Virus genome (UHGV): UHGV-0304279
DNA: 53,351 bases
From: a virus
Reading direction: 5' to 3' (one strand)
Of this stretch, positions 1 to 53,351 are shown piece by piece; position 1 is the stretch's first letter; each line of letters starts with the position of its first letter. A program made the translations under genes and the position numbers. The notes beneath the pieces are model-generated. The model saw only the letters and a list, made by a program, of their open reading frames with translations, was not told the origin of the DNA and did no database searches.

Positions 1-56
1 AATCCATTTTGGTATGATTTAGCGTGATGCAGATCACAAAATTACAAGGTGAGAAA

Positions 57-761
57 ATGCGCAATATACCTACAGAAATGATTATTGATTCCGTCGATGC
101 CGGAGTTGGCGCGGTCATTGACTTGTTCGAACTGGACCTATCGCCACTTGGTGGCGAGGTTATCCGCTTCCATTCCGGTGCAAACGGCTATTACGGCCCT
201 GTTATCTGGAAGGACGTGGCTTACAACAGCTACCCGATCGAGGCTACTGGCTTCGAAATGAAAAACGAAGGCGTTTATTCACGTCCTCAAATGGTTGTAG
301 CCAACATCGGCGGCCTCATTACAGGGATGAATAACGATTTCAACGACCTCAGAGGCATGAAGGTAACGCGCCGCCAGGTGGAGGTAAAATATCTTGACGC
401 CGTTAACTTCCCTAACGGAAACCCCGACGCAGATCCATCTATTGAGGCTGTGTCTTTTTACGTAGTGGAGTCCATGAGCGAAGAAACAGCGGATCAGGTT
501 CAGTATGAACTGTCAACGCCAATTGATGCTGATAAAGCCGTTATCCCTGGTCGCACCATCCTTGCTGACGTTTGCCAGTGGCAATACAGGGGCGATGGTT
601 GCATGTATTCTGGCGGCCCGGTAGCAACGGATAAAGATGTACCGACAAGCGATCCAACGTTAGACAAATGCAGCCACAGATTGAGTGGTTGCCGTTTACG
701 TTTCCCGCGCCCGGCAGCACTGCCTATCTCCTGTTTCCCTGGTTCCAGCAAGGTAGGTTAA
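57..761 (+). CDS. minor tail protein L (lambda gpL-like)
   Basis: Translation aligns by eye with lambda gpL over its length (FLDAVNF, PGR..LA..C.W.YRG..C.YSG, SGC motifs); RBS AAGGTGAG before ATG at 57; the track ORF begins at 24 with a GTG. Confidence 0.85.
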   Translation: MRNIPTEMIIDSVDAGVGAVIDLFELDLSPLGGEVIRFHSGANGYYGPVIWKDVAYNSYPIEATGFEMKNEGVYSRPQMVVANIGGLITGMNNDFNDLRGMKVTRRQVEVKYLDAVNFPNGNPDADPSIEAVSFYVVESMSEETADQVQYELSTPIDADKAVIPGRTILADVCQWQYRGDGCMYSGGPVATDKDVPTSDPTLDKCSHRLSGCRLRFPRPAALPISCFPGSSKVG

Positions 762-763
762 TC

Positions 764-1495
764 ATGGGGATGGAAGACAAAATGTCGCGTTATGCCGCCG
801 CGCATCCGTTTGAGGAAGTTTGCGGGCTTGTAATAGATAACGAGTATTTTTACCCGTGCGCTAACGTATCTGAAACGCCTCACAACAGCTTCAAAATTTC
901 GCAGGACGATTACATCAAAGCGGACGAATTAGGCGTTATAACCGCCGTTTTTCACTCTCACGTTGATGATATTCCGGTATTGTCGGCACGGGATCGACAA
1001 CAGCAGGTTATTTCAGGGCTACCCTGGCTTTTGTATTCAGGCGGCAGGATCAGGAAATTCCGTCCGGTGGCGCACCTGTTAGGCCGTAAATTTGTACACG
1101 GAACGACAGATTGTTATGCGCTTTTTCGCGACGCCTATCACCTTTGCGGCGTGGACCTGCCGGACTTCGAGCGCCTTGATGGCTGGTGGCTTCGCGGTGA
1201 AAACCTGTATCTAAAAAACCTTCCATTGAACGGGTTTTATCAGGTTGATGCGCAAAGAATACAGCCTGGTGATGTGATCATTCGCCAGCCGTTTAAAGGT
1301 GCTGATCCATGTCACGCGATGGTTTACCTGGGCGATAACACAGTTTTACATCATGACCATGCCGGACTATTAAGCCGCCGCGAGCAAATGCGGCCCGCGT
1401 ATGTTCGACAGACTCATTCAATATGGAGATCTGATAAATGCTCAAATTTAGATTTACGGGCAATCTTCGAAGATATTACAGCAAAGTGTGTTTAA
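764..1495 (+). CDS. tail tip assembly protein K (lambda gpK-like, JAB/MPN plus NlpC/P60-type)
   Basis: Position after L and the HSH-containing segment typical of gpK; internal ATG at 764 directly follows the L stop, within track ORF 668-1495. Confidence 0.8.
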   Translation: MGMEDKMSRYAAAHPFEEVCGLVIDNEYFYPCANVSETPHNSFKISQDDYIKADELGVITAVFHSHVDDIPVLSARDRQQQVISGLPWLLYSGGRIRKFRPVAHLLGRKFVHGTTDCYALFRDAYHLCGVDLPDFERLDGWWLRGENLYLKNLPLNGFYQVDAQRIQPGDVIIRQPFKGADPCHAMVYLGDNTVLHHDHAGLLSRREQMRPAYVRQTHSIWRSDKCSNLDLRAIFEDITAKCV

Positions 1496-1968
1496 ACGTT
1501 GAAACGCCAGCGCAAGGACTTCGCTTATTGACCGCGCAGAATCAGGAATTCAAGAAGGCGTTTTTAAATACTCCTTTGCGTTTACGAATTGCCGGGAAAG
1601 ATTACAACGAAAAGACAGCGCCAGCGGCGGTTAATAGCAAATATCCAGATGGAACTACGGTAATTATTGCGCCAATAGTGGAAGGTGGTATTGCAGGGAT
1701 CGGTGTGGTCGGCTGGATTATGATTGGACTATCAGTTGTTAGTGTCGCTTTTTCTATTTTTATGTCTCGCAACATGAAAGTAAAAACATCATCAGAAAGC
1801 GCACAGGACAATACAATCACAAATAACACCTATACCAGCGTAGAAAACAAGGTAGGCCAGGGTAGACCAGTGCCGATTCTGCTTGGCGAAATGAAAGTAG
1901 GTTCAAACGTCGGATCGTTAGGCATAGACACGACAAATAATAAAGACGCCTTAGACGTTGTAAGTTAA
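1438..1968 (+). CDS. tail assembly protein I (lambda gpI-like)
   Basis: Position between K and J, overlaps the K 3' end as in lambda; hydrophobic glycine-rich central segment; start uncertain. Confidence 0.65.
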   Translation: MLKFRFTGNLRRYYSKVCLNVETPAQGLRLLTAQNQEFKKAFLNTPLRLRIAGKDYNEKTAPAAVNSKYPDGTTVIIAPIVEGGIAGIGVVGWIMIGLSVVSVAFSIFMSRNMKVKTSSESAQDNTITNNTYTSVENKVGQGRPVPILLGEMKVGSNVGSLGIDTTNNKDALDVVS

Positions 1969-1982
1969 CAGGAGAATTAACC

Positions 1983-4900
1983 ATGAGTAGCGGCGGCGGC
2001 AAAGCAAAAACACCGACTTTAATTAACGATAATCTATATCACAAACAGTTTTATCGTGTACTCGACATTATTTCAGAAGGTCCGATTTATGGTCCTGTTA
2101 ATACCAATGCGCCATTAAACAGCGTAATGCTTAATGACACTCCTGTAACTGACGCGAACGGTAATACCAGCATTCCAGGTGTTAGCGTTGCGTGGCGCAA
2201 TGGTACTGCCGACCAGTCACCGATCAACGGCTTTAATGCCATTGAATCCACGGTGATGGTTAACGCGCAGGTGAAACACGACACGCCACTGGTAAGGACG
2301 GTATCAGATCCGAACGTGACGCGAGTCCGGTTAAATATTGGTGTGGATTCACTGGTGGAAAGCGATAGCCAATCAAACCAGAAAGAAACATCTGTCATTA
2401 TGGCGATCGACGTTAAACCGTCCTCATCTTCCACATGGTCGTCTATCAAGGCCGTGCAAATAGGTCCAGGTAAAATCAGCGGAGAATACCTTGAAGCGCA
2501 TATTATCAATGCGCCAGATGAAAAGCCGTTTGATATTCGCGTTCGCCGTGTAACCGCTGATAGCACAAGCGATCTATTGCAGAATGATACGCGGTGGAAT
2601 AGCTACAGCGAAATAATCGACGATAATTTATCTTATCCTCACACCGCTGTAGCAGGCGCGGTTATTGACCACGATCAGTACACTGACACGCCTACCCGCA
2701 CCTATCACCTGCGTGGGCTTATTGTTGACGTGCCTGATAACTACGACCCGGAAACGCGCACTTATTCCGGTTTATGGCTTGGCGGGATGAAACAGGCGTA
2801 CACAAATAACCCTGCATGGATATTCCGCTACCTGGTTAAAAACGAGCGTTTCGGCCTTGCCCGTCATGCTGGCTACATTGACGTTGACGACGGCGCACTA
2901 TATACGCTATCCCAATACTGCGACCAGTTGGTCGATGATGGTTACGGTGGTCTTGAGCCGCGCGTTACGCTTAATGCTTACATTACGGAGCAAATGAGCG
3001 CACGCGACTTACTGGATAACATCGCCGGGATGTTCCGGGGGATCGCGTTATGGGACGGGCAACGCCTTACCGTGATGATTGATGCACCACAAGATCCAAT
3101 CGCCACCATTACGAATGCAAACGTTGTTGATGGCGCGTTTACTCGTTCAAGTATTTCCCGTGCGGAATGCTACAACGCCGTGATCGTATCCTGGACTGAC
3201 CCGGAAAACGGCTGGGAACAATCAAAAGAGTATGTAGCAGATGATGAATTAATCGCCCGTGACGGTTACAACGAAACCACGATGGAGGCGTTTGGCTGTA
3301 CGTCACGCGGGCAAGCGTACCGCGCTGGCAAATGGCTGATAGAAACAGCAAAACGCGAGCCGTCAAAATTCACATTTAAAATGGCCCGTGACGCGATTCA
3401 CTTTACGCCAGGGGATATTATCGAGATCCTCGACAATAACCGCGCAGGTGCGCGTTTAGGTGGTCGTATCGTGGCGAATAATGGGAACGTGATAACAGTT
3501 GATAAGGTTGACAGCGAGTACATCACGGCAGGCGACACTATCAGCCTGCTTGATAGCGATGGCAAATTTAAAAAACATCAGATCACTGGTATCAGCGGGA
3601 ACAAAATCACACTGGCTGCGGCCCCTGCATGGATTAGAAACGGTACTGTTTTTGCTGTATCAACCGAAGCAGCAAAACCCGTTTTATGCAGAATCACCAG
3701 TGTAGCCGAAACCGAAAATAATAGCGTGTATACCATCGAAGCCGCGCAACATGACCCTAACAAACAAGCAGTAGTCGATGAAGGCGCGATATTTGAAATC
3801 AACAACGACACGCTTAATCACTTCCGTGTACCGAATATTGAAAATCTGAAAGTGGTAAACATCGGATCTGAAACGGTTCAATGCCGCGCAACATGGGAAA
3901 CACAGACAACTACGCATCGCATGACATTCGAGATCCGCATATACAATACCGATGGTGCGGTGGTTAAAAGCTACGAAACAACGAAATACAGTTATGATTT
4001 TTACGGCATTGACGCTGGCGCGTATTCGTTAGGCGTTCGTGGAAGAAACGATACTGGCATGAAAGGTGCTGAAAGTATTGTCGATCTTGTTATTGGTGCT
4101 CCAGCCGCGCCAGTTGGCGTAAATTGGGTTCCCGGCGTATTCCAGGCGACCGTGTACCCGATAAGCAAAACCACGCTTACTACCGATACGTCATATGAAT
4201 TCTACTATGCTGGGGAAAACCAGATCACAGATCCTGCAATAATAACCACATCGGCACAGTTTACCGGGCGCGGGTATCAATGGACGTTCGGCGGCATGAA
4301 TACGGGCCATACTTATTACGTTTATGTGCGCACTCGCAATGCTTTTGGTGTGTCTGATTTCGTCGAGGCATCAGGTAAGCCGACAGAGGATTTTGACGAA
4401 ATTACTGATTACGTTACAAAGGATGTAATGGAGTCAGAGCAATTTAAGGAGATGATTAGCGACATTAAAGATCTTGGCGATCGCACTGACATTGTAGAAG
4501 GAGCTACCGAAGACCTTAAAATAGCTACAGAGGATCTTAAAGCTGACACAGATACACTTAAAAAAGACACCGAAGACCTTTATAAGAAAGTCGAAGAAAA
4601 CGCCGATGAAATAGGCAAACATGAGGTAAGAATAGACTCATTAGAGGTATCAAGCGAAAACGTTAATAACGAACTGGCACAGACAAAAGCAAGTTTACAA
4701 AACGCTTCGCTTGCTCTGATCAACAACTCGCTTGCTCAAACTAACACGCGGGTTACTCTTACCGCTCAATATAAGAAAGGTCGCAACGAAACAAAGGCAC
4801 AGATTGACCGCATTGACAACGTTATCGCAGAGGAGAAAAAAGCGACAGCGGAATCACTGGAAACCATCACAGCCGAAATAAGCACGATGGACTCAAACAT

Positions 4901-6035
4901 CAAAGGAGAGATAGCACGCGTAGACAAAGCAATAGCAACAGAAACGCAGGCAAGAAGCGACGCAATAACAGAAGTTAAAGCTGATCTTACAACGCTTGAA
5001 AGTAATACAAATGCCAGTGTTAGCCGTCTCGATCAGGCCATCGCTGATGAGTCAAGCGCCCGCGCCCAGGCAATATCAGGAATCAGTGCGGAGCTTGGTC
5101 TTGTTGAAAATGAGGTTGATAAAAACAGCGACGAAATAGATCAGGCGAAAGCAAGTCTACAAAACGCTTCACTTGCTCTGATCAACAACTCAATAGCGCA
5201 AAGCAAAATGAGCACTGTTATTGAGGCAAAATACAGGAAAGGCCAGACAAAAACAAAAGCGGAAATAGCAAGGATCGACACCGCAATAGCAGACGAAACC
5301 CAGGCCCGCGCGGAGGCTATAGCATCGCTTGAGGCAAATATTAATGAAAACATTTCAGCAAAAATAACAGATATATCAACGGCGCTTGCAACTCACGAGG
5401 AATCAAGTGCTGAAAAATTTGTTCAAATATCGGCATCTTTCGACGATGTAAACTCAAGCATCACGGAATGGTCACAGGCTATGGCAACGGCAGACGAGGC
5501 ATTATCAACCAAAATTGATCAGCTAACAGTTACCGTTAACGGGAACACAACAGCTATCGAGACGACATCGAAAGCATTAACTGATTTCAAAGGTGACGTT
5601 AACGCATCATATTCAATCAAGATTGCCACTGATAACAACGGCATGAAATATGCCACTGGCATGTCGCTTGGCCTGACTGGTAGCGGGACTAACGTTCAAT
5701 CGCAGTGCATTTTCCTCGTTGACCGCTTCGTGTTAATGACCGCCGCAAACGGCACATATACAACGCCTTTCTATGTCACTGGCGGCGCAATGTATGTACG
5801 TGAAGCGTTTATTAAGGACGCATCAATCACTAACGCGAAAATAGGTTCTTACATCCAATCAAATAACTATGTTTCCGGCAGCACAGGCTGGAAACTTGAT
5901 AAATCCGGTACATTCGAAAACTACGGATCAGTAAGCGGTGAAGGGGCGATGAAGTGGACGAATACAACGATCTCTGTCAGAGATGGAAATAGCGTGTTAC
6001 GCGTCCAGATTGGGCGAATTACCGGATCATGGTAG
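1983..6035 (+). CDS. tail tip / host specificity protein J (central tail fibre), with long C-terminal coiled-coil extension
   Basis: N-terminal two thirds resemble lambda gpJ throughout (N-terminus, NPAW, YCDQ.V.DG.GG.EPR.T.NAY, FGCTSRGQA.RAG.WL motifs); 1350 aa; C-terminal part is heptad-rich with an internal duplication. Confidence 0.9.
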   Translation: MSSGGGKAKTPTLINDNLYHKQFYRVLDIISEGPIYGPVNTNAPLNSVMLNDTPVTDANGNTSIPGVSVAWRNGTADQSPINGFNAIESTVMVNAQVKHDTPLVRTVSDPNVTRVRLNIGVDSLVESDSQSNQKETSVIMAIDVKPSSSSTWSSIKAVQIGPGKISGEYLEAHIINAPDEKPFDIRVRRVTADSTSDLLQNDTRWNSYSEIIDDNLSYPHTAVAGAVIDHDQYTDTPTRTYHLRGLIVDVPDNYDPETRTYSGLWLGGMKQAYTNNPAWIFRYLVKNERFGLARHAGYIDVDDGALYTLSQYCDQLVDDGYGGLEPRVTLNAYITEQMSARDLLDNIAGMFRGIALWDGQRLTVMIDAPQDPIATITNANVVDGAFTRSSISRAECYNAVIVSWTDPENGWEQSKEYVADDELIARDGYNETTMEAFGCTSRGQAYRAGKWLIETAKREPSKFTFKMARDAIHFTPGDIIEILDNNRAGARLGGRIVANNGNVITVDKVDSEYITAGDTISLLDSDGKFKKHQITGISGNKITLAAAPAWIRNGTVFAVSTEAAKPVLCRITSVAETENNSVYTIEAAQHDPNKQAVVDEGAIFEINNDTLNHFRVPNIENLKVVNIGSETVQCRATWETQTTTHRMTFEIRIYNTDGAVVKSYETTKYSYDFYGIDAGAYSLGVRGRNDTGMKGAESIVDLVIGAPAAPVGVNWVPGVFQATVYPISKTTLTTDTSYEFYYAGENQITDPAIITTSAQFTGRGYQWTFGGMNTGHTYYVYVRTRNAFGVSDFVEASGKPTEDFDEITDYVTKDVMESEQFKEMISDIKDLGDRTDIVEGATEDLKIATEDLKADTDTLKKDTEDLYKKVEENADEIGKHEVRIDSLEVSSENVNNELAQTKASLQNASLALINNSLAQTNTRVTLTAQYKKGRNETKAQIDRIDNVIAEEKKATAESLETITAEISTMDSNIKGEIARVDKAIATETQARSDAITEVKADLTTLESNTNASVSRLDQAIADESSARAQAISGISAELGLVENEVDKNSDEIDQAKASLQNASLALINNSIAQSKMSTVIEAKYRKGQTKTKAEIARIDTAIADETQARAEAIASLEANINENISAKITDISTALATHEESSAEKFVQISASFDDVNSSITEWSQAMATADEALSTKIDQLTVTVNGNTTAIETTSKALTDFKGDVNASYSIKIATDNNGMKYATGMSLGLTGSGTNVQSQCIFLVDRFVLMTAANGTYTTPFYVTGGAMYVREAFIKDASITNAKIGSYIQSNNYVSGSTGWKLDKSGTFENYGSVSGEGAMKWTNTTISVRDGNSVLRVQIGRITGSW
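4686..5213 (+). repeat. internal direct duplication inside J coiled-coil region (copies about 4686-4729 and 5170-5213)
   Basis: Near-identical about 44 nt segments encoding KASLQNASLALINNS(L/I)AQ, each followed by a similar about 50 aa block. Confidence 0.7.
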
Positions 6036-6085
6036 AATTAAGGGGCCGACTTGTTCGGCCTCAGTTTTATTATGGAGGTGTAATA

Positions 6086-6397
6086 ATGGCTACTTTCGGC
6101 GTAGCGACCTGGGACGCCAATGGCAATCCTAATAACTACGGTATCAAACCTTCCGTCGTAGTTGGCTATATTTCCTTGTCTTCCGGGCAAGTATCCGGAA
6201 CATATTCTTTTACCGTTCCAACCGGGTGCAAATTATCTTATGGCGTGGCGCTTGATTATGGTACAACATCGTCAACGCGCAGAAAGATCAGCATTTCCGG
6301 CGGCACTGTTTCCATTTCCTCCGCAGGGGATACGGTAGGGGCTGATATATGGCCTGCGTCACAATGTGACCTGATTATTTTTACGGAGATTGCATAA
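6086..6397 (+). CDS. hypothetical protein, MATFG paralogue 1
   Basis: ATG at 6086 with RBS GGAGGT; shares the N-terminal MATFG..(L/W)..NGN motif with the next gene. Confidence 0.5.
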   Translation: MATFGVATWDANGNPNNYGIKPSVVVGYISLSSGQVSGTYSFTVPTGCKLSYGVALDYGTTSSTRRKISISGGTVSISSAGDTVGADIWPASQCDLIIFTEIA

Positions 6398-6996
6398 TGG
6401 CTACTTTTGGCGCTTATTTACGCCTAGATAATGGCAATATTTTTGTAACGCCGGATTCTACCCCGATGTGCTTATATTCGCGGGTGGCATTAAATTCCAG
6501 CCAACAACAAACGATCGCTGTACCCAACGGTAAGCCTGTAATGGTATTCATCAAAAACACCGACGACACCGCTACTGGGCTTGCCTATCGCGCATCATCA
6601 TCTACGGTAGTGATCCCGCCTGGCAACGGGTATGCGTATATATTCAGCATCTTCCCGCCATCGCTGCCGAAATGGGGGATGGCTATCTGGAACGCTTCCG
6701 GGGAACTGGTACTGACCAACGAATCAAAAATATTAACCGACCTTGTTACAGTAGGCACGGCGGGATCGAGCGGGGGGATTTATATCGATCAAACATTATC
6801 AGGATCTTATGCGGTAGTGCCTCAGATATTGGGGGCCGCTGTAGGTATGGGTTCCGCAACAATATATACAGAATCATACTACAACGGCAGCAATACACGA
6901 ATTCGCGGGAAGATGGTTGGTAGCTTGCAACAGATTTACGGTTACATTAATCACGGGAACGCTATCACCGCCATTAAAACCGACGCCTATGATTAA
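6397..6996 (+). CDS. hypothetical protein, MATFG paralogue 2
   Basis: Start overlaps the stop of the previous gene (TAATG); N-terminal paralogy; glycine/serine-rich. Confidence 0.5.
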   Translation: MATFGAYLRLDNGNIFVTPDSTPMCLYSRVALNSSQQQTIAVPNGKPVMVFIKNTDDTATGLAYRASSSTVVIPPGNGYAYIFSIFPPSLPKWGMAIWNASGELVLTNESKILTDLVTVGTAGSSGGIYIDQTLSGSYAVVPQILGAAVGMGSATIYTESYYNGSNTRIRGKMVGSLQQIYGYINHGNAITAIKTDAYD

Positions 6997-7232
6997 TTCA
7001 GTTCCGGGCAATCCGTTTTCTTGAAGTGGTCAACGCTTACCCATTGGAAGTTAAACGGATACCCGGCCTTAACCATTTTATGACCGCCAACATCCGCGAC
7101 ACCGAAGACTGCAACCGCATATTCATTACCTCCAGCCTGATAAGTTGCCGTGCATTCACGTTTCGGCATATCAGCGCAACCAACCATACCAGCGACCATT
7201 GCAGCTATAGCGATATTTTTAAAGCCTTTCAT
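6993..7232 (-). CDS. small lipoprotein (moron), candidate superinfection-exclusion factor
   Basis: Minus-strand ORF inside the tail operon; signal peptide with lipobox-like VGC (MKGFKNIAIAAMVAGMVGCAD); RBS GGAGG upstream. Confidence 0.5.
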   Translation of the reverse strand: MKGFKNIAIAAMVAGMVGCADMPKRECTATYQAGGNEYAVAVFGVADVGGHKMVKAGYPFNFQWVSVDHFKKTDCPELN

Positions 7233-7307
7233 TGTCTTATCCTCCATTGTTCCGTCGGTTGTAGTATCCATAAACATCGTTTTCTCAACATTGATATAAA
7301 TCAATAA

Positions 7308-7362
7308 ATACATTTTGTATAAGCCAGAAATGTAACGCAGATCACAAAATGGTAAAATTACC
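7308..7362 (+). promoter_or_regulatory. restart promoter-like region upstream of the tail fibre gene
   Basis: Contains ATACATTTTGTATA and GATCACAAAATGG motif copies plus extended -10-like TGgTAAAAT at 7350-7358. Confidence 0.4.
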
Positions 7363-7391
7363 AGGTTAATTAACATAATGGAGTCATTGCG

Positions 7392-9170: not shown

Positions 9171-9180
9171 GGTGGTTAGC

Positions 9181-9781: not shown

Positions 9782-9797
9782 AATGGGGGGGTGCAAC

Positions 9798-44513: not shown

Positions 44514-44541
44514 CCCCGGCGCAATGCCGGGGATTTTTTTT
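44514..44541 (+). terminator. rho-independent terminator after the capsid gene
   Basis: CCCCGGC-gcaat-GCCGGGG followed by a T-run. Confidence 0.8.
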
Positions 44542-44559
44542 GTATGTGGAGCAAACAAA

Positions 44560-44946: not shown

Positions 44947-44948
44947 CA

Positions 44949-45495: not shown

Positions 45496-45497
45496 TC

Positions 45498-45962: not shown

Positions 45963-46345
45963 AACGCAGCGAAGTTTACGACGAAATAAGGGATTGGATT
46001 CAATCCCACGGATACGATGAAGGCTATATTTTGCAGGCCCGTTTCTGGAATGAGCGAAGCAATTCGAATAATGACAGATACATCGTGATCCAGCAAAACG
46101 GCGGCGCGGCTGGTGAGGAAGCAATAACCCGTGATTATTTCCGCATCCTGGTTATTTCAGCGCGTAATGATGCAAATATCAGTGAGGTGGAAGACCTTGC
46201 CGACGCCATCCGCCAAAGTATGTTAACAGAATATAAAACTGATAAAATTACACACATGAAGCCAGTTGGCGCTATTCCTGCAATGCAAACAAGAGAAGGG
46301 CGCTTTATTTTTACCGTAGCCTTTCAAACCATCATATCAAGATAA
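45959..46345 (+). CDS. tail terminator/completion protein
   Basis: Position immediately upstream of the major tail protein. Confidence 0.5.
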   Translation: MKRSEVYDEIRDWIQSHGYDEGYILQARFWNERSNSNNDRYIVIQQNGGAAGEEAITRDYFRILVISARNDANISEVEDLADAIRQSMLTEYKTDKITHMKPVGAIPAMQTREGRFIFTVAFQTIISR

Positions 46346-46358
46346 GAGGTAAATTAAC

Positions 46359-46835
46359 ATGTCTCAGACTTGCGAAAAGGGCACGTTTACAGGCCGTGAC
46401 GTTGCTGTATTCTTCGCTATCGCTTGTCCAAATGCGAAGCCGGAAGCTGAAGTGTACAAAGCGTTAGGCATGATGCGTGGTAAAACACTTTCCGTTGAAT
46501 GGGAAACCGCTGACGCCACCGCCGATAAATCAGCCGATTACACGAAAGAATCAATGGTTACTTACAAATCCGTTTCTTTCTCCGGCGACGGTGTGTCCCG
46601 CACTGAAGAAATCCATAATCAGAAAGCGCTGAAACGCCACGTAATTACACCAGGTGAAACCACTGGATCACAACCTTATGTATGGCTAAAGATCGTTTCT
46701 CCTGTAGACGTAACCGAAGGCCCATTCCTTTGCACTTCCTTTAAAGAAGAAGATCCGCACGATGATGTTTCTACCTGGTCTATTGAGTGCGAAAGCGCTG
46801 GACAGGTAACGGTAGGCGATATCCCATCGGAATAA
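46359..46835 (+). CDS. major tail protein
   Basis: 158 aa, position upstream of chaperone and tape measure; terminator downstream; RBS AAGAGG. Confidence 0.7.
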   Translation: MSQTCEKGTFTGRDVAVFFAIACPNAKPEAEVYKALGMMRGKTLSVEWETADATADKSADYTKESMVTYKSVSFSGDGVSRTEEIHNQKALKRHVITPGETTGSQPYVWLKIVSPVDVTEGPFLCTSFKEEDPHDDVSTWSIECESAGQVTVGDIPSE

Positions 46836-46853
46836 CAACTCAGATTAACAATC

Positions 46854-46877
46854 GGGGCCATTTGGCCCCTTTCTTTT
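46854..46877 (+). terminator. rho-independent terminator after the major tail gene
   Basis: GGGGCC-attt-GGCCCC followed by TTTCTTTT. Confidence 0.75.
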
Positions 46878-46889
46878 AGGGTGATAACT

Positions 46890-47567
46890 ATGATTCATGT
46901 TCGGACCGGGCAATTTGCGGCGGTGGTAGACGGTAGGCGGTATGTGTTTAATCCCTGCTTCGCCGCGATGGCAAAAATAGGCAGTGACAGAGAACTGGTC
47001 GAATATTTCGCAACAATCCACGGCGGCAAATATCCATCACGCTTGCCAGCAGACCCAGACTTACGCAATCGCATTCTGGCGCGGTGTTATGGTGAAATAG
47101 TGCAGACATCAATGCACATCCTGAAATGTTGCTCAGACGATGAAATAGGCCCGTTATTGGGCGAGTGTAGGTTTACTCCTTCGGGCAAGTTGCGACTAAA
47201 ACCAGGCTTGATGCCTACTGACGACGTTATCACGCTGGCGCAGCATTGCGTGTACCACGGCTTAATCGGTGATGGGCCGGAAGAAGATGCCGGAGAAATC
47301 CCGGAAGGGGAATATAAACCGACTTTTAACGTCCTTGAATTCGTCTATTCTGCCGTTGCTCACCTGGGCTTGTCAGAATCGGAAGCATGGAATATGACAA
47401 TGACCGGATATAGGGCCACTGTACGCGCTAAAACGCCGCCAGACGAAAGAAGCGAAAGAAGTAAGCCAAACGTTCACATAAATAAACGTGCTTATGACGA
47501 GCAAATGGAGGCCGCTAAAAAGGCGCTAAAAAGAATGGAAAATCGCAAGCAAGAAAAAGCCCGGTAG
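46890..47567 (+). CDS. tail assembly chaperone (gpG-like)
   Basis: Position immediately upstream of the tape measure region; acidic segment; Lys-rich C-terminus; no frameshift partner found. Confidence 0.55.
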   Translation: MIHVRTGQFAAVVDGRRYVFNPCFAAMAKIGSDRELVEYFATIHGGKYPSRLPADPDLRNRILARCYGEIVQTSMHILKCCSDDEIGPLLGECRFTPSGKLRLKPGLMPTDDVITLAQHCVYHGLIGDGPEEDAGEIPEGEYKPTFNVLEFVYSAVAHLGLSESEAWNMTMTGYRATVRAKTPPDERSERSKPNVHINKRAYDEQMEAAKKALKRMENRKQEKAR

Positions 47568-47582
47568 ATCCGGGCGTTTGTC

Positions 47583-47996
47583 TTATTTGATTCTAACAAT
47601 ATCAATAAAACCGTTACCTAAATCGACAATTGCGTGATTTTTTGCGCCAGCGCCGCCTTCATTAAAAATTCTTTCAGCGAAAGCAACTTTATTTGCTTTA
47701 CACTCGTTAGCTATCCTGTTTTTTATTTCGCTATTGTTTTCAAAGACTACGCTTACAGCAGCCTCGTTTACAAGGCCATAATTAAACCAACGAGCATAAA
47801 CTGGTTTACCTTCAAAATTTTTATCAATTGCCTTAAAAAGAATTGTGGGTGCGACTGGTTCTTTTTTGATCATGTCGTGATATGCGGCTACATGGTTTGC
47901 CACTTCTTCACAGTTAATGTTTATGGCCTCGTTAGCGTTCGCGTTAAATGCCAGTGCAGCAATCACAGCAAGTACCATTTTTGCTAACCGTTTCAT
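47583..47996 (-). CDS. secreted protein (moron) with N-terminal signal peptide
   Basis: MKRLAKMVLAVIAALAFNANA signal peptide; antisense to the tail operon; bidirectional hairpin at 47555-47582. Confidence 0.55.
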   Translation of the reverse strand: MKRLAKMVLAVIAALAFNANANEAININCEEVANHVAAYHDMIKKEPVAPTILFKAIDKNFEGKPVYARWFNYGLVNEAAVSVVFENNSEIKNRIANECKANKVAFAERIFNEGGAGAKNHAIVDLGNGFIDIVRIK

Positions 47997-48247
47997 AATT
48001 AACCCCTGTAATTATTCTGATTTGCTAAATGCTTCCTTTAACTTAGTTATACACGCATATTGTTTATTTTTTAAGTGCTTTTAACATTTCTTCGATAAGG
48101 TCCGCATAGCGTTCATATTCGTTGGGACGGTAGTTTACGTTTCTCATTTTCTTATCCTCTTTCACTTCCTCCGGGACATCCGGCCTTCCTGCATCTCTTC
48201 TATCTTTCTCTACATCATCTATACAAAACGGTATCGTTAAAATAAAG

Positions 48248-48288
48248 ACATTTTGTATAAAATAGATACATAGATCACATTTTGCATG
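48248..48288 (+). promoter_or_regulatory. restart promoter-like region upstream of the tape measure gene
   Basis: ACATTTTGTATAA with -10-like TATAAA, then GATCACATTTTGCATG; RBS GAGG before ATG 48299. Confidence 0.4.
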
Positions 48289-48298
48289 AGGTTAAATC

Positions 48299-50638
48299 AT
48301 GGCTACCAGTGTAGGTACAATTTATTACGAAGTTGACGCAAAAACAGGACAACTTCTTGTAGCACAACGACAGGCAGACCAAGCCTTTGACCGTATAGAG
48401 CGCGGTGCTAAACAGGCCGATCGCCAGGTAAACACACTGAAAACATCAATCAAAGCACTGACCAGGGTTATCCATCTGCTAATTGCTGCCGAGGCCGTTA
48501 GACAGTTTATGGAAATGGCAGAGCAGGCCAAAATGCTACGCGTCAAAATCAAAATGCTGACAGGCAACGCGGAATCTGCCGGGCGGGTTTTTGATGGTCT
48601 GAAAGAAATATCCAGGGAGACGGGGCAGAGCCTGAAAGATACTGGCGAATTATGGCAAGGCCTGGCTATCTCACTAAAAAACACCTCCGCTACGGAAGGG
48701 CAATTGCTTAACCTGGTTGGCACCATTCAGAAGATGGGCGCGTTAGGGGGCGCGTCAGCAGAGCAAATGTCAAACTCTATGCGCCAGTTCCGACAGTCTA
48801 TTGACGGCGGCGTACTTCGCGCAGAAGAATTCAACAGCTTGCTTGAAAATACGCCGACCATCGTACAAACAATGGCCCGCAAGATGGGATTATCAATGGG
48901 CCAGTTCCGCGCCGAAATGCTGGACGGCAAGATCACGGCAGAGAGGATGGTTAACGCAATCCAGGCGGCTACGCAGGAAACAAACGAGCAGTTCGCACAG
49001 TTGCCGCGCACATCCGGCATGGCTATCAATGAACTAAAAGTCGAGGTAATGGGTCTGGTGGAACAACTGGACGATCTTTTCGGTGTATCAGATGGCGTAG
49101 TCTCAGCTATCGACTTGATCACAAAAGGAGTTAATGGGCTAGGTGAGGGCGCTAAATTCGCTAAAACCTGCTTTGATACGCTCAAAACGGCTGGTAGCGA
49201 ATTCATCGACATGTTTGATGATGTGGCTGTGAAGGCTGGCGAGGTGGCAGAGAAGATCATCGCAATGGTGACGCCAATCAAGGCGCTAATGGATGGCTAT
49301 AAATGGATGAAAGAGATTGTCGATGAACGCAAGGAAGAACTAAACAGCAACAACGAGAAAAAATTTGGCCCTACCATCGGTAAATTCATGACGTTTAAAA
49401 ACGACATTGAAAAGGCGACCGCCGCTTATGACGAGCTTATGCAGAAACAGGCAGAAGCCAACGACGGAGCTATTACCGGATTCGATAAGCCAGTTGATAA
49501 GCCGAAAAAACAGAAAAAAGAGAAGAAATCGGAAGCTGATCGGCTTGGAGACAAGGGCATAAGCGTTTCTGATCAGTACAACAAAGACGCCGCCGCCATG
49601 CGCAAAGCGTTAGAGAACGGCAAGGCCATTGATGCTGCGTTCGCCCAGGGTAAAATCACACTCCTTGAGTACCGCGCCGCGCAAAAAGGGATCGGCAAGG
49701 AACTGAAAGAAGAATTAGCGCAGATCCCGGTAGATGAATTGCGTGATAAATGGTCGCAAATAGTTAGCCCAATGGACCAGCTAAAAGGCGAAGTTGACCC
49801 TATCCAGCAGGCGCAAAATGAATGGGCCGTCCGTAAGCAAATGCTTATCGACCTGGGCGCTACAGAAGCACAACAGAAACAGGAATTATTAGCCTATGAG
49901 CAGCAGATCCGCGATCTGAAGTGGGAACAGTGGCAGGCGCAAAGCCAGACAAACGGCCTGATCGGTGATTGCGTTAATGGCCTTAAAGGTGGCATGAGCA
50001 ATGCGCTTGTTGGCCTGCTTAACGGTACTCAATCATTGAGCGATGTTTTTGCTAACTTAGGCAGCAATATACTTGGGAATATCGGTAACAGACTTTCGGA
50101 CATAGCTGCCAACTGGATAGCAGATCAAATCATGATGGAGACACAAAGCAAAGCCACGCAGGCCAGCACAACGGCAAGCGCGGTTGCCGCTCAGGGAAGC
50201 ATTGCGGCGGCGGCGGCCCCGGCGGCGGCAGCGACAGCGGCATCAACTGGCGGTAGCTGGGCGGCGGCTGGCTCGGCGGCGCTTACTGCGATCATGTCGC
50301 TGGCAACATCCATTTTCGGCGGCGGGCGCTTTAATGGTGGTAGCGTAATTGGTGGCAATATGTACCGCGTCGGGGAACATAACAGGCCGGAGCTATTCCA
50401 GACGTCTAACGGCAACCAATACATGATCCCCGGCGAGAATGGCAGGGTTATCCCGGGGCGTGATATTGGCGGCGGCGGCGGTATCAGTATGCCTGTTTAC
50501 ATCGACATTCAAACCACAAACGGATTTAGTGACGAAGACAGCCGCAGACTTGAACAGACAATGGAACGTGTAGCCATGAAAATGATAACAAGGGAATCGC
50601 AAAGACCTGGCGGGATGTTGCAACCGCGCCGCAAATAA
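48299..50638 (+). CDS. tail tape measure protein
   Basis: 779 aa, helical N-terminal two thirds, Gly/Ala-rich C-terminal region; position. Confidence 0.85.
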   Translation: MATSVGTIYYEVDAKTGQLLVAQRQADQAFDRIERGAKQADRQVNTLKTSIKALTRVIHLLIAAEAVRQFMEMAEQAKMLRVKIKMLTGNAESAGRVFDGLKEISRETGQSLKDTGELWQGLAISLKNTSATEGQLLNLVGTIQKMGALGGASAEQMSNSMRQFRQSIDGGVLRAEEFNSLLENTPTIVQTMARKMGLSMGQFRAEMLDGKITAERMVNAIQAATQETNEQFAQLPRTSGMAINELKVEVMGLVEQLDDLFGVSDGVVSAIDLITKGVNGLGEGAKFAKTCFDTLKTAGSEFIDMFDDVAVKAGEVAEKIIAMVTPIKALMDGYKWMKEIVDERKEELNSNNEKKFGPTIGKFMTFKNDIEKATAAYDELMQKQAEANDGAITGFDKPVDKPKKQKKEKKSEADRLGDKGISVSDQYNKDAAAMRKALENGKAIDAAFAQGKITLLEYRAAQKGIGKELKEELAQIPVDELRDKWSQIVSPMDQLKGEVDPIQQAQNEWAVRKQMLIDLGATEAQQKQELLAYEQQIRDLKWEQWQAQSQTNGLIGDCVNGLKGGMSNALVGLLNGTQSLSDVFANLGSNILGNIGNRLSDIAANWIADQIMMETQSKATQASTTASAVAAQGSIAAAAAPAAAATAASTGGSWAAAGSAALTAIMSLATSIFGGGRFNGGSVIGGNMYRVGEHNRPELFQTSNGNQYMIPGENGRVIPGRDIGGGGGISMPVYIDIQTTNGFSDEDSRRLEQTMERVAMKMITRESQRPGGMLQPRRK

Positions 50639-50644
50639 CACTAA

Positions 50645-50670
50645 GGCCGCTATAAGCGGCCTTTATTTTA
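50645..50670 (+). terminator. bidirectional terminator between the tape measure gene and the antisense cassette
   Basis: GGCCGC-tataa-GCGGCC followed by TTTATTTT. Confidence 0.65.
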
Positions 50671-50955
50671 CATGGTAAGGATATAAATTAAACAGCACAG
50701 GAATGCGGGCGCGGCGAAGTCGCAAACGCTAGCCATATTCCATGCTTTTGGTAAAAAACCACCATACCACGGCATTCTTTCTCGTTTCCCTCCGCAAAAT
50801 TCCGCTATGTAACGATATTCAGCCTGTGTGTGTTCCCGTGCAAAAAAGAATGTACATCCAATCAGGCCGCCAGTGAGATAATCACCAGTAAGCAGGCCGA
50901 TAACAACCTGTATAGTCGCCGCAGCCAGTGCGTGACCAATAACGGTTAAATCCAT
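50668..50955 (-). CDS. small membrane protein (moron)
   Basis: Two or three hydrophobic segments; RBS GGGAGG. Confidence 0.5.
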   Translation of the reverse strand: MDLTVIGHALAAATIQVVIGLLTGDYLTGGLIGCTFFFAREHTQAEYRYIAEFCGGKRERMPWYGGFLPKAWNMASVCDFAAPAFLCCLIYILTM

Positions 50956-50957
50956 CG

Positions 50958-51143
50958 TTAATCCTCCCGATCGTTCTCAAATGTGCCATCTACAAATTTT
51001 TGCAGCCCGGCGATAAGTTGTGTTGCCTGCGATTTTTCAATTACTATGGTTTCAGTCCCCATAAGTTCGGTTATCCACAGCCGACCATCCTCATCAAGAT
51101 CTAACCTAACTCCGTAACATAACTCTGTTTCGTCAATAATCAT
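50958..51143 (-). CDS. hypothetical acidic protein (moron)
   Basis: 61 aa ORF coupled to the downstream membrane protein gene. Confidence 0.4.
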   Translation of the reverse strand: MIIDETELCYGVRLDLDEDGRLWITELMGTETIVIEKSQATQLIAGLQKFVDGTFENDRED

Positions 51144-51253
51144 TTTTCATCCTATAATCTTCCGTTACGTGCGACGTAACCCCCTGCCGAACATCACTAA
51201 CCAGATGTTCCAGATCTCCCGCTAGGTATATTTCTCCTCCTCCATATTCCACC

Positions 51254-51508
51254 TCACTTATGAGCGCCTTTCACTCCGCAATGACGGTTGTATTCCAGGT
51301 GATCGATAATTAACCAAATATTCAAATCTTCACTGAACAGCCGCCAGTCAGGATTGATATCGAATTTAAAGCCATAACCATCACGTAATTTTTTGGGGCG
51401 GGCTTCTTTTTTCAGGAAGGCGTTAAGCAACTTCTTGCCTTTCTTGATTACCCGTTCCTGTGCATTCTTTTGTGCTTTCAGGTTTTTTTCGATAGTTACC
51501 AGTTTCAT
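51254..51508 (-). CDS. hypothetical basic protein (moron), possible toxin-like partner
   Basis: 84 aa, Lys-rich N-terminus; RBS GGGGTGAG; lies 17 nt downstream of a 51 aa ORF. Confidence 0.45.
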   Translation of the reverse strand: MKLVTIEKNLKAQKNAQERVIKKGKKLLNAFLKKEARPKKLRDGYGFKFDINPDWRLFSEDLNIWLIIDHLEYNRHCGVKGAHK

Positions 51509-51525
51509 AACTCACCCCATCGTCC

Positions 51526-51681
51526 TTAGTTAAGCGCCCTCAGGAAGAAATCCCGGTATTCATCATCCTTCGCGTTCATCATGAATTGACCGTATTTGAA
51601 TGCGTCGTCGAAACCCTTAACAATTGCTACTTCCACTTGCTCGAATGCGTTGTTTAGCATCACTACTACATAGCTACTCAT
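51526..51681 (-). CDS. hypothetical small protein (51 aa), first gene of the antisense cassette
   Basis: MSSYVVVMLNNAFEQVEVAIVKGFDDAFKYGQFMMNAKDDEYRDFFLRALN; RBS GTGAGG. Confidence 0.4.
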   Translation of the reverse strand: MSSYVVVMLNNAFEQVEVAIVKGFDDAFKYGQFMMNAKDDEYRDFFLRALN

Positions 51682-51754
51682 TTTTGGGCCTCACTTGCTG
51701 GTACCGCTTTTCTTCTTGCTTCCTGTATACGGCTTGTTGCTTCATGTGTGAATA

Positions 51755-51837
51755 CATATTGTAAACTAGCTATAATTCTTGTGACGAATATCTCATTTTT
51801 CGCGTAGAAGCGCGTAAAGATATATACAAAATGTAAC
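51755..51837 (+). promoter_or_regulatory. restart promoter-like region upstream of the gpM-like gene
   Basis: ATACATATTGTAAAC (51755-51769), perfect -10 TATAAT (51771-51776), ATATACAAAATGTAAC (51822-51837). Confidence 0.45.
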
Positions 51838-51851
51838 TTACAGGAGGGGGT

Positions 51852-52205
51852 ATGCCGGAAGTGTTCAGATGGACACCACAGAGAAGCTACAGCGTAAACA
51901 GTGAGCCTAACGTGTCCGTTATCAAGCTGGGCGATGGCTATGAACAGCGCCAGACAAAAGGGATTAATCCACTACTTGACAGCTATACGCTGGTCTTTAA
52001 AGGTACGAGCGCCGGATGCGGTGACGCCGGAAACGTGGCGCTCCAGGTTGACGCATTTTTAAGAGCACGTTGCGCGGTCGAGGCGTTTTACTGGACGCCA
52101 TCTACAGACGGAGTGAAAAGGCTTTTTGTATGCCGAAAGTGGAGCATGGCGAAAGACGGCCCGGTATGCACTCTGAATGCAACGTTTGAACAAGTTATCA
52201 ATTAA
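51852..52205 (+). CDS. minor tail protein M (lambda gpM-like)
   Basis: Resembles lambda gpM end to end (FRW.P, GDGY.QR, FLWTP, C.KWS, F.AEFEQV.N); RBS AGGAGGGGG. Confidence 0.8.
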   Translation: MPEVFRWTPQRSYSVNSEPNVSVIKLGDGYEQRQTKGINPLLDSYTLVFKGTSAGCGDAGNVALQVDAFLRARCAVEAFYWTPSTDGVKRLFVCRKWSMAKDGPVCTLNATFEQVIN

Positions 52206-52218
52206 TGGAGAAGTCAAT

Positions 52219-52404
52219 ATGTATGCTATTTGTGTAGTTGACCGCACGGGCGCTTTTACATTATTTGACGACTATGAAATCAAAGATCTTACCGTAAAGG
52301 CTGACAATGGCGAGATCTGGTATCTTCATGACGTTGGTGACGGGTATGTTGGGTGCAGGTCGAGAGAGGGAAGGGAAGTTTTATTTTTGGTTGATAGCGT
52401 ATAA
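52219..52404 (+). CDS. hypothetical protein
   Basis: RBS GGAGAAG. Confidence 0.4.
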   Translation: MYAICVVDRTGAFTLFDDYEIKDLTVKADNGEIWYLHDVGDGYVGCRSREGREVLFLVDSV

Positions 52405-52504
52405 ACACGACCCCGCGCGAAGCGGGGTTTATAGTGTCGATAGCAGAATGCATAACAATCCAATAATGATAATAATCATCTCCAGAACGTAATGTTCGCA
52501 CATC

Positions 52505-52753
52505 TCATAACGCCCCCTTCAAATATGTCAATCCCTTATCAGTGACGAATGAATGGTTTACCTGGTTTTCATCCGTCATGATGATGAATAACTTTTCCTG
52601 TAGGTATTTCGCTTTTGGGTACAGCGTTAAACAGACCTGGTACAAAACCCCGCGCTCAATCAGCAAATCAATAAATTCGTGCTCATGATAACCGATAAGG
52701 CGGGCGGCCTGTTTCAACGTGTACACATAGCCACCGTGATTGCGCCGCGTCAT
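52505..52753 (-). CDS. hypothetical protein (moron; possible HTH)
   Basis: RBS AAGGTGG. Confidence 0.45.
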   Translation of the reverse strand: MTRRNHGGYVYTLKQAARLIGYHEHEFIDLLIERGVLYQVCLTLYPKAKYLQEKLFIIMTDENQVNHSFVTDKGLTYLKGAL

Positions 52754-52762
52754 ATTGCCACC

Positions 52763-53113
52763 TTATTTGCCGAACGCTCCCAGGTTGTCGATACAGAAAT
52801 CTTTTGCCGCTTTTTCGTATTCACGTTTTGCTTGCGGATCATCTGCCGGGAAACCTTTTGCGTGTATTTCACCAGGACAAGCCTGATCCATAGAGTTGGC
52901 AAAATTAACATTGAAGTTAACATTAATATCTTTCGGGTTCATATCTTCCACCTCATCTGGTATTTGCACCGGAACAACCACAAAATCACGCGCACTAGAC
53001 CAACAACGCAGCAATTCACGACCATCATCACGCGCGGCGTTGTATGTATCGAATAACCCTATGCGCTCCCATTCGCATTTATCAGTGAACACCTCTAATC
53101 TGTATTTTTGCAT
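52763..53113 (-). CDS. hypothetical protein (moron)
   Basis: ATG 53113 with RBS AAGGGTAG. Confidence 0.4.
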   Translation of the reverse strand: MQKYRLEVFTDKCEWERIGLFDTYNAARDDGRELLRCWSSARDFVVVPVQIPDEVEDMNPKDINVNFNVNFANSMDQACPGEIHAKGFPADDPQAKREYEKAAKDFCIDNLGAFGK

Positions 53114-53117
53114 AATG

Positions 53118-53297
53118 CTACCCTTCATTTATTGGCCTGATCCGGTAGCCGATAATGCGGCTATCTTTCTCCATAAGTTCAAAAGCCGTATCTATAGCAT
53201 CATCAGGATTATCGAAATCAGACGTTATGTTTTCATTTCCAGTCATGAAAACCGTAAGCCTCCATAACTTACCGCCGCCATTGCTGCATCGCGCCAT
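53118..53297 (-). CDS. hypothetical protein (moron)
   Basis: ATG 53297 with RBS GGAGGT. Confidence 0.4.
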   Translation of the reverse strand: MARCSNGGGKLWRLTVFMTGNENITSDFDNPDDAIDTAFELMEKDSRIIGYRIRPINEG

Positions 53298-53351
53298 TTT
53301 GTTTACCTCCATTCGTTTGAGTAAAATATACATATTGTAAAAACCGCGATC
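53293..53351 (+). promoter_or_regulatory. motif-containing region at the window end, continuous with positions 1-56 upstream of the gpL-like gene
   Basis: GCCATTTTGTTTAC and ATATACATATTGTAAAA here; CCATTTTGGTATG and GATCACAAAATT at 4-43. Confidence 0.35.

Follow-up and report, generated by a model that had tools for sequence, protein, structure and literature searches.

The 53,351-bp stretch of DNA analysed here (the window) is very probably one complete unit genome of a temperate siphovirus of E. coli from the mEp021/mEpimmI group, which we predict to package its DNA by the headful. In form the window is an ordinary result, an arbitrarily opened circle cut between two tail genes. Its length compares with 52.2–54.7 kb in its relatives. 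Searches with Pfam and PHROGs found all of the modules of a temperate tailed phage, as a sequence-only reading of this DNA had proposed. The tail order also wraps over the window ends as described there, with the tape measure gene (48299–50638) and minor tail protein M (51852–52205) at the 3' end and L-K-I-J from base 57 at the 5' end. The tail operon is divided in this way because the circle was opened upstream of L.

On the 3' side of the genome, a forward-strand lysis cassette (34741–36005) encodes a holin (34741–34941), an endolysin (34942–35433) and an Rz-like spanin (35421–36005). The head block (39472–44493), on the same strand, contains the portal (39472–40866), a Mu-F/SPP1-gp7-like head protein (40811–41752), a decoration protein (43043–43423) and the major capsid protein (43441–44493), together with a 427-aa protein of PHROG 760 (41743–43026) that is scaffold-like by position only. 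Forward-strand head-tail and tail genes then occupy 44524–50638 and include a DUF7370 gene, the tail terminator (45959–46345), the tail tube (46359–46835), a DUF6246 gene in the chaperone position (46881–47567) and the tape measure gene; a lone reverse-strand ORF (47583–47996) lies inside this block. Between the tape measure gene and M there is a reverse-strand cassette (50668–51681) with ORFs of 95 and 61 aa, a ParE-like toxin (51254–51508) and a 51-aa ORF (51526–51681), and this cassette is kept in all of the near-identical loci compared. M itself matches Phage_min_tail (PF05939, 99 bits) and is followed on the forward strand by a 61-aa ORF (52219–52404). A second reverse-strand cassette, between M and L (52505–53297), encodes a KilAC/ANT-like protein of 82 aa and proteins of 121 and 59 aa.

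The tail genes at the start of the window are all on the forward strand. They are minor tail protein L (57–761; Phage_tail_L PF05100, 232 bits), tail protein K (764–1495; NlpC/P60 and JAB domains, with gene calls in near-identical loci), tail assembly protein I (1438–1968; PHROG 32 and synteny with mEp021_77) and the 1350-aa tip attachment/central fibre protein J (1983–6035; five gpJ Pfam domains). Accessory genes of the moron type follow J at 6086–7376 (PHROGs 557, 425 and 1119), namely an outer-membrane-protein-like gene (6086–6397) and a membrane-associated one (6397–6996) on the forward strand and a Cor-like superinfection exclusion gene (6993–7376) on the reverse strand. The side tail fibre, of 592 aa with a Laminin_G_3 C-terminus, lies in the forward-strand region 7392–9447, with an 88-aa ORF (9181–9447, forward) downstream of it.

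Early functions are divided between two strands. A leftward operon (10952–17608, reverse) encodes an Xis-like HTH protein (10952–11182), NinB (12045–12476), a DnaB helicase (13519–14940), an exonuclease (14959–16092) and an HTH_36 replication protein (16568–17608). It is followed by a forward-strand cI-like repressor gene (17869–18516), assigned from matches to HTH_3 and Peptidase_S24, in a region with 90.6% nucleotide identity to mEp021. Rightward early and middle genes (18805–28309, forward) run from an N-like ORF (18805–19095), syntenic with the gene called N-like in MagusPhagus, through Erf (19245–19886), SSB (19886–20290), Dam (23780–24313), NinG (26400–27005) and RusA (27002–27421) to the Q antiterminator (27587–28309). 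Erf, SSB, Dam, NinG, RusA and Q, with NinB, make up the module for recombination and late control. From Q to the lysis genes, gene calls in an identical contig give a forward-strand block of approximately 28 small genes (46–115 aa) with no assigned function (28309–34700); a 114-aa ORF (32606–32950) lies within this region. A scan of the window found no tRNA, and an Rfam search of the window gave nothing at the gathering threshold. One sub-threshold Rfam match, an S15-leader at 37395–37476, was judged to be due to chance. NCBIfam models gave sub-threshold matches only with the packaging and head proteins.

The prediction about packaging comes from the terminase. The small subunit, TerS (37448–37933, forward), is Sf6-gp1-like, since it matches Sf6_terminase (PF20901) at 127 bits against a cut-off of 27 and aligns over residues 17–143 with Sf6 gp1 in PDB entries 3HEF and 4DYC (E = 4e-28). 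These two matches place it with the pac-type small terminases, and Sf6 is a headful packager (PMC5630979). The large subunit, TerL (37930–39414, forward), is a Terminase_6C protein with an ATPase domain that is 29% identical to that of T1 TerL (E = 1e-39), a similarity confined to this domain. Its matches are to terminases, mostly uncharacterised, of T1-like phages, Klebsiella siphophages (presumably Webervirus) and mycobacteriophages such as Rosebush; no Pfam model matched its N-terminal domain. A sequence search of the PDB returned no relative of TerL and thus no detectable similarity to gp2 of Sf6 or P22. As no similarity of TerL to gp2 was detectable, the terminase combines two types, with a TerS like that of Sf6 and a TerL that has a T1-related ATPase domain.

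Because of this Sf6-type TerS and T1-related ATPase domain, we infer that this phage uses a pac-initiated headful mechanism. The small terminase would recognise pac, the large terminase, with its T1-related ATPase and Terminase_6C nuclease, would cut after a headful, and the virion DNA would then be both terminally redundant and circularly permuted. DNA packaged in this way would give circular assemblies without fixed ends, and GenBank records would be opened at the depositor's choice. Records of this group are opened at three places, those of the mEp phages, mEp021 included, at attP/int, that of MagusPhagus at cI and in the opposite orientation, and the window at L. The sequence-only reading had called the genome circularly permuted. 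As a description of how the genome is represented, a circle whose intergenic opening point is arbitrary, this is correct, whereas permutation of the packaged DNA is predicted from terminase homology. The paper that describes the mEpimmI group (PMC11893012) does not address packaging, and a headful packager with an Sf6-type TerS and a T1-related TerL ATPase domain would be a combination not reported for these phages.

We consider it rather unlikely that the genome, complete and circular in assembly, belongs instead to a phage that packages from cos sites or short fixed repeats and has unique ends, so that the apparent permutation is an artefact of linearisation. Self-closing contigs are also obtained from cos phages if the DNA that was sequenced is replicative and circular or concatemeric, so closure cannot discriminate between the two; the self-closing assembly described below and the lack of a terminal repeat in the window are compatible with permuted virion DNA and not diagnostic of it. 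TerL also has no close relative that is characterised experimentally, and the 0.7-kb stretch upstream of TerS, which lacks conventional genes, is at a frequent place for cos sites. However, this stretch is filled by conserved mini-ORFs and is not non-coding, TerS is a clear homologue of Sf6 gp1, T1 is the nearest classical relative of TerL over the ATPase domain, and the SPP1-gp7-like head protein is of a kind typically seen in headful phages. By contrast with lambdoid cos packagers, which have a Nu1/gpA-type terminase with cos upstream, the window encodes an Sf6-type TerS and a Terminase_6C TerL, and Pfam found none of the Terminase_1, Terminase_GpA or Nu1 domains of lambda- and HK97-type cos phages.

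Just upstream of TerS, at 36715–37438 on the forward strand, there is a tandem array of nine mini-ORFs of 22–31 aa, each with one hydrophobic helix. These 724 nt contain no CDS in either the mEp021 GenBank record or the RefSeq annotation of KKa019, and a PHROGs search with the nine mini-peptides gave no family. The number of copies differs among phages (5, 9, 11 and 11, with micro-proteins of 22–47 aa), MagusPhagus having 11 upstream of its TerS compared with nine in the window. We suggest only tentatively that the array may be a real, expressed gene family of translationally coupled, single-helix membrane micro-proteins, with the headful pairing of TerS and TerL as a lesser point.

Completeness and circularity are supported by a public contig, SRR6787364_19, from what is likely to be the source assembly. 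This contig has 53,377 nt and was opened 6,656 nt from the window start. Over the 47,512 nt compared (89% of the window) the two are 100% identical with 0 mismatches, with exact placements at 6657–19170, 23691–44014 and 45334–53351 continuing into 1–6682; identity over the remaining 11% is assumed from the exact match in length. The first 26 nt of the contig are the same as its last 26 nt, and 53,377 minus 26 is exactly 53,351, the length of the window. The contig therefore closes on itself, and the circularity proposed from the window alone was borne out by this overlap. The 26-nt overlap is an assembler signature and not a biological terminal repeat. No terminal overlap was found between the window's own two ends, and a search for repeats linking its last and first 2.5 kb gave nothing above chance. 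We explain the record by a self-closing assembly, the circle having been linearised at a point within the 110-nt intergenic region that immediately precedes L. The 3' half of this region (53298–53351) holds a conserved copy of ATACATATTGTAAA at 53328–53341, and the 5' half (1–56), upstream of L, is continuous in MagusPhagus and in SRR6787364_19.

It is highly improbable that the end-to-start join was produced by an assembly error, as a false circle closed on a repeat or in a contig that is collapsed or chimeric, and that the window is not exactly one genome. Closure does depend on the 26-nt overlap only, but this 26-mer occurs once in the window, as follows from the exact placements, and the join itself lies 6.6 kb from the contig ends, where SRR6787364_19 crosses it at 100% identity without a mismatch. 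Gene order and total length also match an independent prophage measured from att to att (53,504 nt) and seven phage isolates. When the window ends were joined artificially, the joined sequence aligned in one piece and with 100% coverage to seven independent phage genomes, and in one piece to at least 12 E. coli prophages. Compared with MagusPhagus the join is continuous base for base with no indel. An exact 40-mer over the join is internal in nine IMG/VR contigs, and a single 19.6-kb alignment at 98% identity passes through it in E. coli chromosomes. Because the artificial join aligns whole to seven independent phages and is continuous with MagusPhagus, chance is not a viable cause of this continuity. 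These data show that the window ends abut in the real genome and that nothing was lost or duplicated at the join.

One claim about the junction was not supported. Matching motif architecture had been described on its two sides, and we found no sequence repeat to which this could correspond. The exact 14-mer ATACATATTGTAAA occurs at 51752 and 53328, in the divergent intergenic regions upstream of M and L, and both copies are on the 3' side of the cut. Inspection of this 14-mer by hand gave no convincing promoter, and a scan of 50500–53351 for sigma-70 promoters and terminators showed no enrichment over shuffles.

The attachment site lies well inside the window. A three-way alignment of the window and the two FAH prophage ends placed the attP core, TCCAGACAGGAC, at 9610–9621, with host dgcM (ydaM) as the target. 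It is followed by a forward-strand tyrosine integrase gene (9798–10988) with arm-binding and catalytic domains in Pfam and PHROGs, type I of the mEpimmI scheme. The KKa019 prophage (NZ_CP091664), at dgcM, is flanked by TCCAGACAGGAC cores at a spacing of 53,504 nt. After rotation at attP, the window is colinear with this prophage from attL core to attR core, with 94.6% coverage and 89.9% identity. Ten lysogens have the exact integrase, and their homology to the window begins exactly at the core, with up to 99.98% identity, and dgcM/smrA are on the other side; the core is inside dgcM at both prophage ends. At each of the 10 places listed, from 24 contigs in 41 blocks, the exact integrase protein adjoins dgcM. 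These results show that the phage in the lysogens is the same one, integrated within dgcM at the 12-bp core.

Integrated prophages in dgcM have attL, attR and host flanks, whereas the window has a single intact attP and is therefore the excised or the replicative/virion form, not a prophage cut from a chromosome. Near-identical prophage copies do exist in many E. coli genomes, but the idea that the window was cut in silico from a chromosome as a prophage, or is a host-trimmed fragment, with integration boundaries as its ends and a possibly incomplete genome, is refuted: prophage boundaries are at the att core and not at the window ends, both phage arms are joined at attP within the window, the ends lie inside a tail operon and abut phage to phage in every relative, and neither the window nor the identical contig carries a host gene. 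The sequence-only reading, which saw no host flanking genes, was thus confirmed on this point, including in the likely source assembly.

As judged by similarity, synteny and integration site, the phage belongs to the mEp021/mEpimmI group. This group includes mEp021, mEp010, mEp013, mEp044, mEp515 and mEp554 and was described as non-lambdoid (Negrete-Mendez et al. 2025, PMC11893012), with inclusion at ≥60% coverage and ≥70% identity to mEp021 (section 2.2 of that paper). The window is above both values, since the first 50 kb of mEp021 (MH706966) align with 78% of it at approximately 83% identity. Integrases of the group are of types I–IV, each with a matching att site. Two further traits of the group, immunity group I (the specificity of a cI-lambda-like repressor) and Nus-dependent N-like antitermination, are phenotypes, to which the repressor gene and the N-like ORF of the window would correspond. 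After one rotation the window is colinear with mEp021, MagusPhagus and the KKa019 prophage, and it shares with mEp021 the type I integrase and ydaM/dgcM insertion, the Q, lysis, terminase, head and lambda-like tail-tip modules, and the reverse-strand cassettes inside the tail operon. Identity to mEp021, mEp010/013/044/515/554 and MagusPhagus is 83–88% with shared gene order, which is below the 95% species level. By contrast with mEp021, the window has a different J C-terminus, fibre and set of moron-type genes after J (5074–9736 is unaligned), a different block of small genes between Q and lysis, and neither of the two HNH endonuclease genes (mEp021_10 and mEp021_78).

MagusPhagus (PP925836.1) is the closest isolate in the phage collection, with 87–88% nucleotide identity and a TerL protein 99% identical to that of the window, but it differs in the integrase region, J and the fibre. 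Near-identical prophages exist at dgcM. Those in GCA_054912545.1 and GCA_043011945.1 are 99.98% and 99.95% identical to the window, in both cases over an 11.4-kb segment that begins at the att core, the latter with the exact fibre protein, and that in GCA_964039645.1 is 98% identical over 19.6 kb through the join. The dgcM prophages show mosaic differences, such as an N6/N4 methyltransferase gene that is in some of them and absent from the window. The tail-tip order (H, M, L, K, I, J) is that of lambda, and M, L, K and J fall into the Pfam families of their lambda counterparts. However, H-M and M-L are interrupted by the reverse-strand cassettes in the window, which does not resemble lambda in its terminase, head genes or early-region layout.

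Together, these data indicate that the window can be used as one whole phage genome with arbitrary coordinates, and that features near its ends, such as the M-L cassette and the regulatory region that precedes L, must be read over the join. This finding is of little importance beyond bookkeeping. With the window, the recently described mEpimmI group gains a genome in excised form, for which near-identical prophages are already in public E. coli assemblies. For a group with no reported packaging mode, the terminase analysis provides a testable prediction, that of headful packaging. If the mini-ORFs do form a real gene family, which would immediately precede the packaging genes and be read in the same direction, its products may have a role at the host membrane in late infection.

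Exact-protein look-ups with J, the fibre and a rare 107-aa ORF led to the Logan contig SRR6787364_19 (53,377 nt), the sole contig in the whole Logan index that carries the exact 107-aa protein. All three stretches fetched from this contig matched the window exactly and together covered 47,512 nt (89% of the window). Contig positions 1–12514 corresponded to window positions 6657–19170, 17035–37358 to 23691–44014, and 38678–53377 to 45334–53351 continued by 1–6682. The sequence-only reading had taken the window for a complete, circularly permuted phage genome and had proposed a search for overlapping ends in the source assembly. Results from this search showed that the contig closes on itself: its first 26 nt are the same as its last 26 nt, and without this overlap 53,351 nt are left, which is the length of the window. 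The contig also contained no host gene, in line with the lack of host flanking genes reported earlier. The window is this circle opened 6,656 nt from where the contig is opened, in a 110-nt intergenic gap bounded by a reverse-strand 59-aa ORF ending at 53297 and the tail gene L starting at 57, and therefore no gene is split. The tape measure gene (48299–50638) and M (51852–52205) were found at the 3' end and L (57–761), K (764–1495), I (1438–1968) and J (1983–6035) at the 5' end, as first described. This wrap-around of genes is what ordinarily results when a circular assembly is linearised. Together, these data support the interpretation that the window is a complete phage genome.

To examine the end-to-start join in relatives, the last 700 nt and the first 700 nt of the window were fused and aligned to phages and E. 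coli. The fused ends aligned in one piece over 100% of their length in six phage genomes and over 98% of their length, in two pieces, in phage mEp021, with 81–84% identity across all phage matches; they also aligned to at least 12 E. coli prophages. Compared with phage MagusPhagus, the join, where AAACCGCGATC is followed directly by AATCCATTTTGG, was continuous base by base with no base gained or lost. E. coli chromosomal loci encoding an identical M protein gave a single 19.6-kb alignment of 98% identity that spans the join. An exact 40-mer across the join (53332–53351 plus 1–20) was internal in nine IMG/VR contigs. Elsewhere nearby these contigs are only about 80–93% identical to the window, whereas the 40-nt string is perfectly kept, which suggests constraint on a regulatory element upstream of L. 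The window ends did not overlap, and comparison of the last 2.5 kb with the first 2.5 kb revealed no shared repeat above chance. Thus, we found no sequence repeat corresponding to the "matching motif architecture" that had been claimed for both sides of the junction.

Closure of the assembly on itself is also what would be seen with a cos phage, since its replicative circles yield the same result; a Pfam search of the packaging and head proteins found no lambda- or HK97-type terminase domain. Homology of the small terminase (TerS) to Sf6 gp1 is clear (Pfam, 127 bits; PDB 3HEF/4DYC, E = 4e-28), and headful packaging is established for Sf6 (PMC5630979). The large terminase (TerL) has a Terminase_6C nuclease domain and an ATPase domain that shares 29% identity with the T1 TerL ATPase domain (E = 1e-39); its remaining distant relatives were terminases of T1-like phages, Klebsiella siphophages and mycobacteriophages such as Rosebush. 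Headful packaging is classical for T1, and circular permutation is on record for the genomes of Rosebush-type (cluster B) mycobacteriophages. The window also encodes an SPP1-gp7/Mu-F-like head protein. From these homologies we consider it likely that packaging occurs by a pac-initiated headful mechanism. Headful packaging would give virion DNA with terminal redundancy and circular permutation, and such permutation would explain why the records of related phages open at three unrelated places: attP in the mEp phages, cI in MagusPhagus and L in the window. The paper describing the mEpimmI group of mEp021-like temperate E. coli phages does not address packaging mode (PMC11893012).

When aligned to the window, the two ends of the FAH prophage defined a 12-bp core, TCCAGACAGGAC, at 9610–9621. 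Left of the core, the window matched the fibre end of this prophage, and right of it the integrase end; the host gene outside the core is dgcM (ydaM). E. coli strain KKa019 has two copies of the core, spaced 53,504 nt apart. When rotated at the core, the window was colinear with the KKa019 prophage from the base just after one core to the base just before the other (94.6% coverage, 89.9% identity), and one alignment block crossed the join. In 10 of the 10 compared assemblies that encode the exact integrase, homology to the window started exactly at the core; identity was highest in GCA_054912545.1, at 99.98% over 11.4 kb from the core. In the assemblies with the exact integrase, dgcM and smrA lie on the far side of the core. 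Because these homology boundaries fall at the core, the window holds attP in its joined form and is a complete unit genome. The idea that the window is a prophage cut-out is rejected, as the prophage ends fall at the core, inside the window. The insertion site of mEp021 has been mapped experimentally (PMC11893012). A type I integrase would insert the phage at dgcM, a proposal well supported by the att analysis and the mEp021 mapping.

Profile searches confirmed each module of the temperate tailed phage that had been recognized from sequence. The integration module consists of a tyrosine integrase (9798–10988) and a small HTH (Xis-like) gene (10952–11182, reverse strand), and the immunity module contains an HTH+S24 repressor (17869–18516). 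The leftward early operon encodes NinB, a DnaB helicase, an exonuclease and an HTH_36 replication protein; the rightward early and middle genes are an N-like ORF, Erf, SSB, Dam, NinG, RusA and Q. Lysis genes (holin, endolysin, spanin), packaging and head genes (TerS, TerL, portal, Mu-F-like protein, decoration protein, capsid protein) and the tail terminator, tube and tape measure genes were also present. The window had no tRNA genes by tRNA scan and no Rfam match at the gathering threshold. Between Q and the holin, about 28 successive small forward-strand genes (46–115 aa; 28309–34700) had no family assignment; among the long stretches, this one is the least conserved in comparison with mEp021 and MagusPhagus. 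Downstream of J (6086–7376) are genes of the lysogenic-conversion type: an outer-membrane-protein-like ORF (PHROG 557), a membrane-associated ORF (PHROG 425) and, on the reverse strand, a Cor-like superinfection exclusion protein (PHROG 1119). The gene at 39472–40866 occupies the portal position and matched Phage_portal_3 (65.6 bits) and the PHROG 146 portal (378 bits); no NCBIfam model matched its protein. RefSeq names its KKa019 homologue (locus L024, 24294–25667) "anti-CBASS protein Acb1 family protein", which is probably a misleading annotation.

Two reverse-strand cassettes, both conserved across the group, break the tail operon. The cassette between the tape measure gene and M (50668–51681), kept in all related loci examined, encodes a 95-aa protein (PHROG 1443), a 61-aa ORF, an 84-aa ParE-like toxin (51254–51508, reverse strand; PF24732) and, upstream of the toxin, a 51-aa ORF that could be its antitoxin. 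The cassette between M and L (52505–53297) encodes a KilAC/ANT-like 82-aa protein, a 121-aa ORF and the 59-aa ORF. A divergent intergenic region follows each cassette and carries an exact 14-mer, ATACATATTGTAAA, upstream of M (51752–51765) and of L (53328–53341); 0.76 matches are expected with up to two mismatches. The copy upstream of L is kept in mEp021 and, over at least its 12-nt core (ATACATATTGTA), in MagusPhagus, and a related sequence, ATACACGCATATTGT, is present at 48049–48063, upstream of the tape measure gene. The 14-mer is possibly a shared operator or a -10 element (TACAAT on the reverse strand), and no convincing promoter could be assigned at it. The window is cut 10 nt past one copy, splitting the upstream regulatory region of the M–L cassette, which therefore needs to be read across the join.

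An apparent 0.7-kb gene-free gap between a 180-aa ORF and TerS (36715–37438, forward strand) is filled by a tandem array of nine mini-ORFs of 22–31 aa, each with one hydrophobic helix; most of them have an RBS-like GGTG/GGAG and a stop that overlaps the next start. They cover 81% of the stretch on this strand compared with 10% on average and at most 51% in 1000 shuffles, and this is the genome-wide maximum of the statistic. There are five copies in mEp021 and 11 each in MagusPhagus and KKa019, and their frames and lengths are preserved. Synonymous codon changes equalled or exceeded non-synonymous changes in about half of the pairs, and one peptide was identical in three genomes with one to three synonymous and zero non-synonymous changes. 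Neither the mEp021 record nor the RefSeq annotation of KKa019 has a CDS in this stretch, and a PHROGs search with the nine peptides matched no family.

In a megablast comparison of the window with GenBank phages, extended similarity was limited to one group, consisting of Enterobacteria phage mEp021, Escherichia phages mEp010, mEp013, mEp044, mEp515 and mEp554, and Escherichia phage MagusPhagus (52.9–54.7 kb; 83–88% identity to the window). These are the mEpimmI phages, described in 2025 as Nus-dependent, non-lambdoid temperate E. coli siphoviruses whose repressor is cI-like and whose integrases are of four types (PMC11893012). The window falls within the inclusion thresholds of this group and shares its synteny and integrase/att features. 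Unlike mEp021, which has two HNH endonuclease genes, mEp021_78 between I and J and mEp021_10 beside the helicase, the window lacks both (1968–1983 and 14940–14959); these differences look like mobile-endonuclease presence/absence polymorphisms among the phages of the group. Six prophages (L027–L029, L032, L035 and L036) carry an extra 0.8-kb N6/N4 DNA methyltransferase gene at window positions 11567–12246, which the window lacks; they are otherwise 99.0–99.7% identical to it in this region, and the difference is a clean mosaic indel. Identity of the window to every described isolate is below the species level, and to the KKa019 prophage it is about 85% as coverage × identity. Near-identical prophages are present in public E. 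coli assemblies, and therefore the window represents a new and as yet undescribed phage of a known kind.
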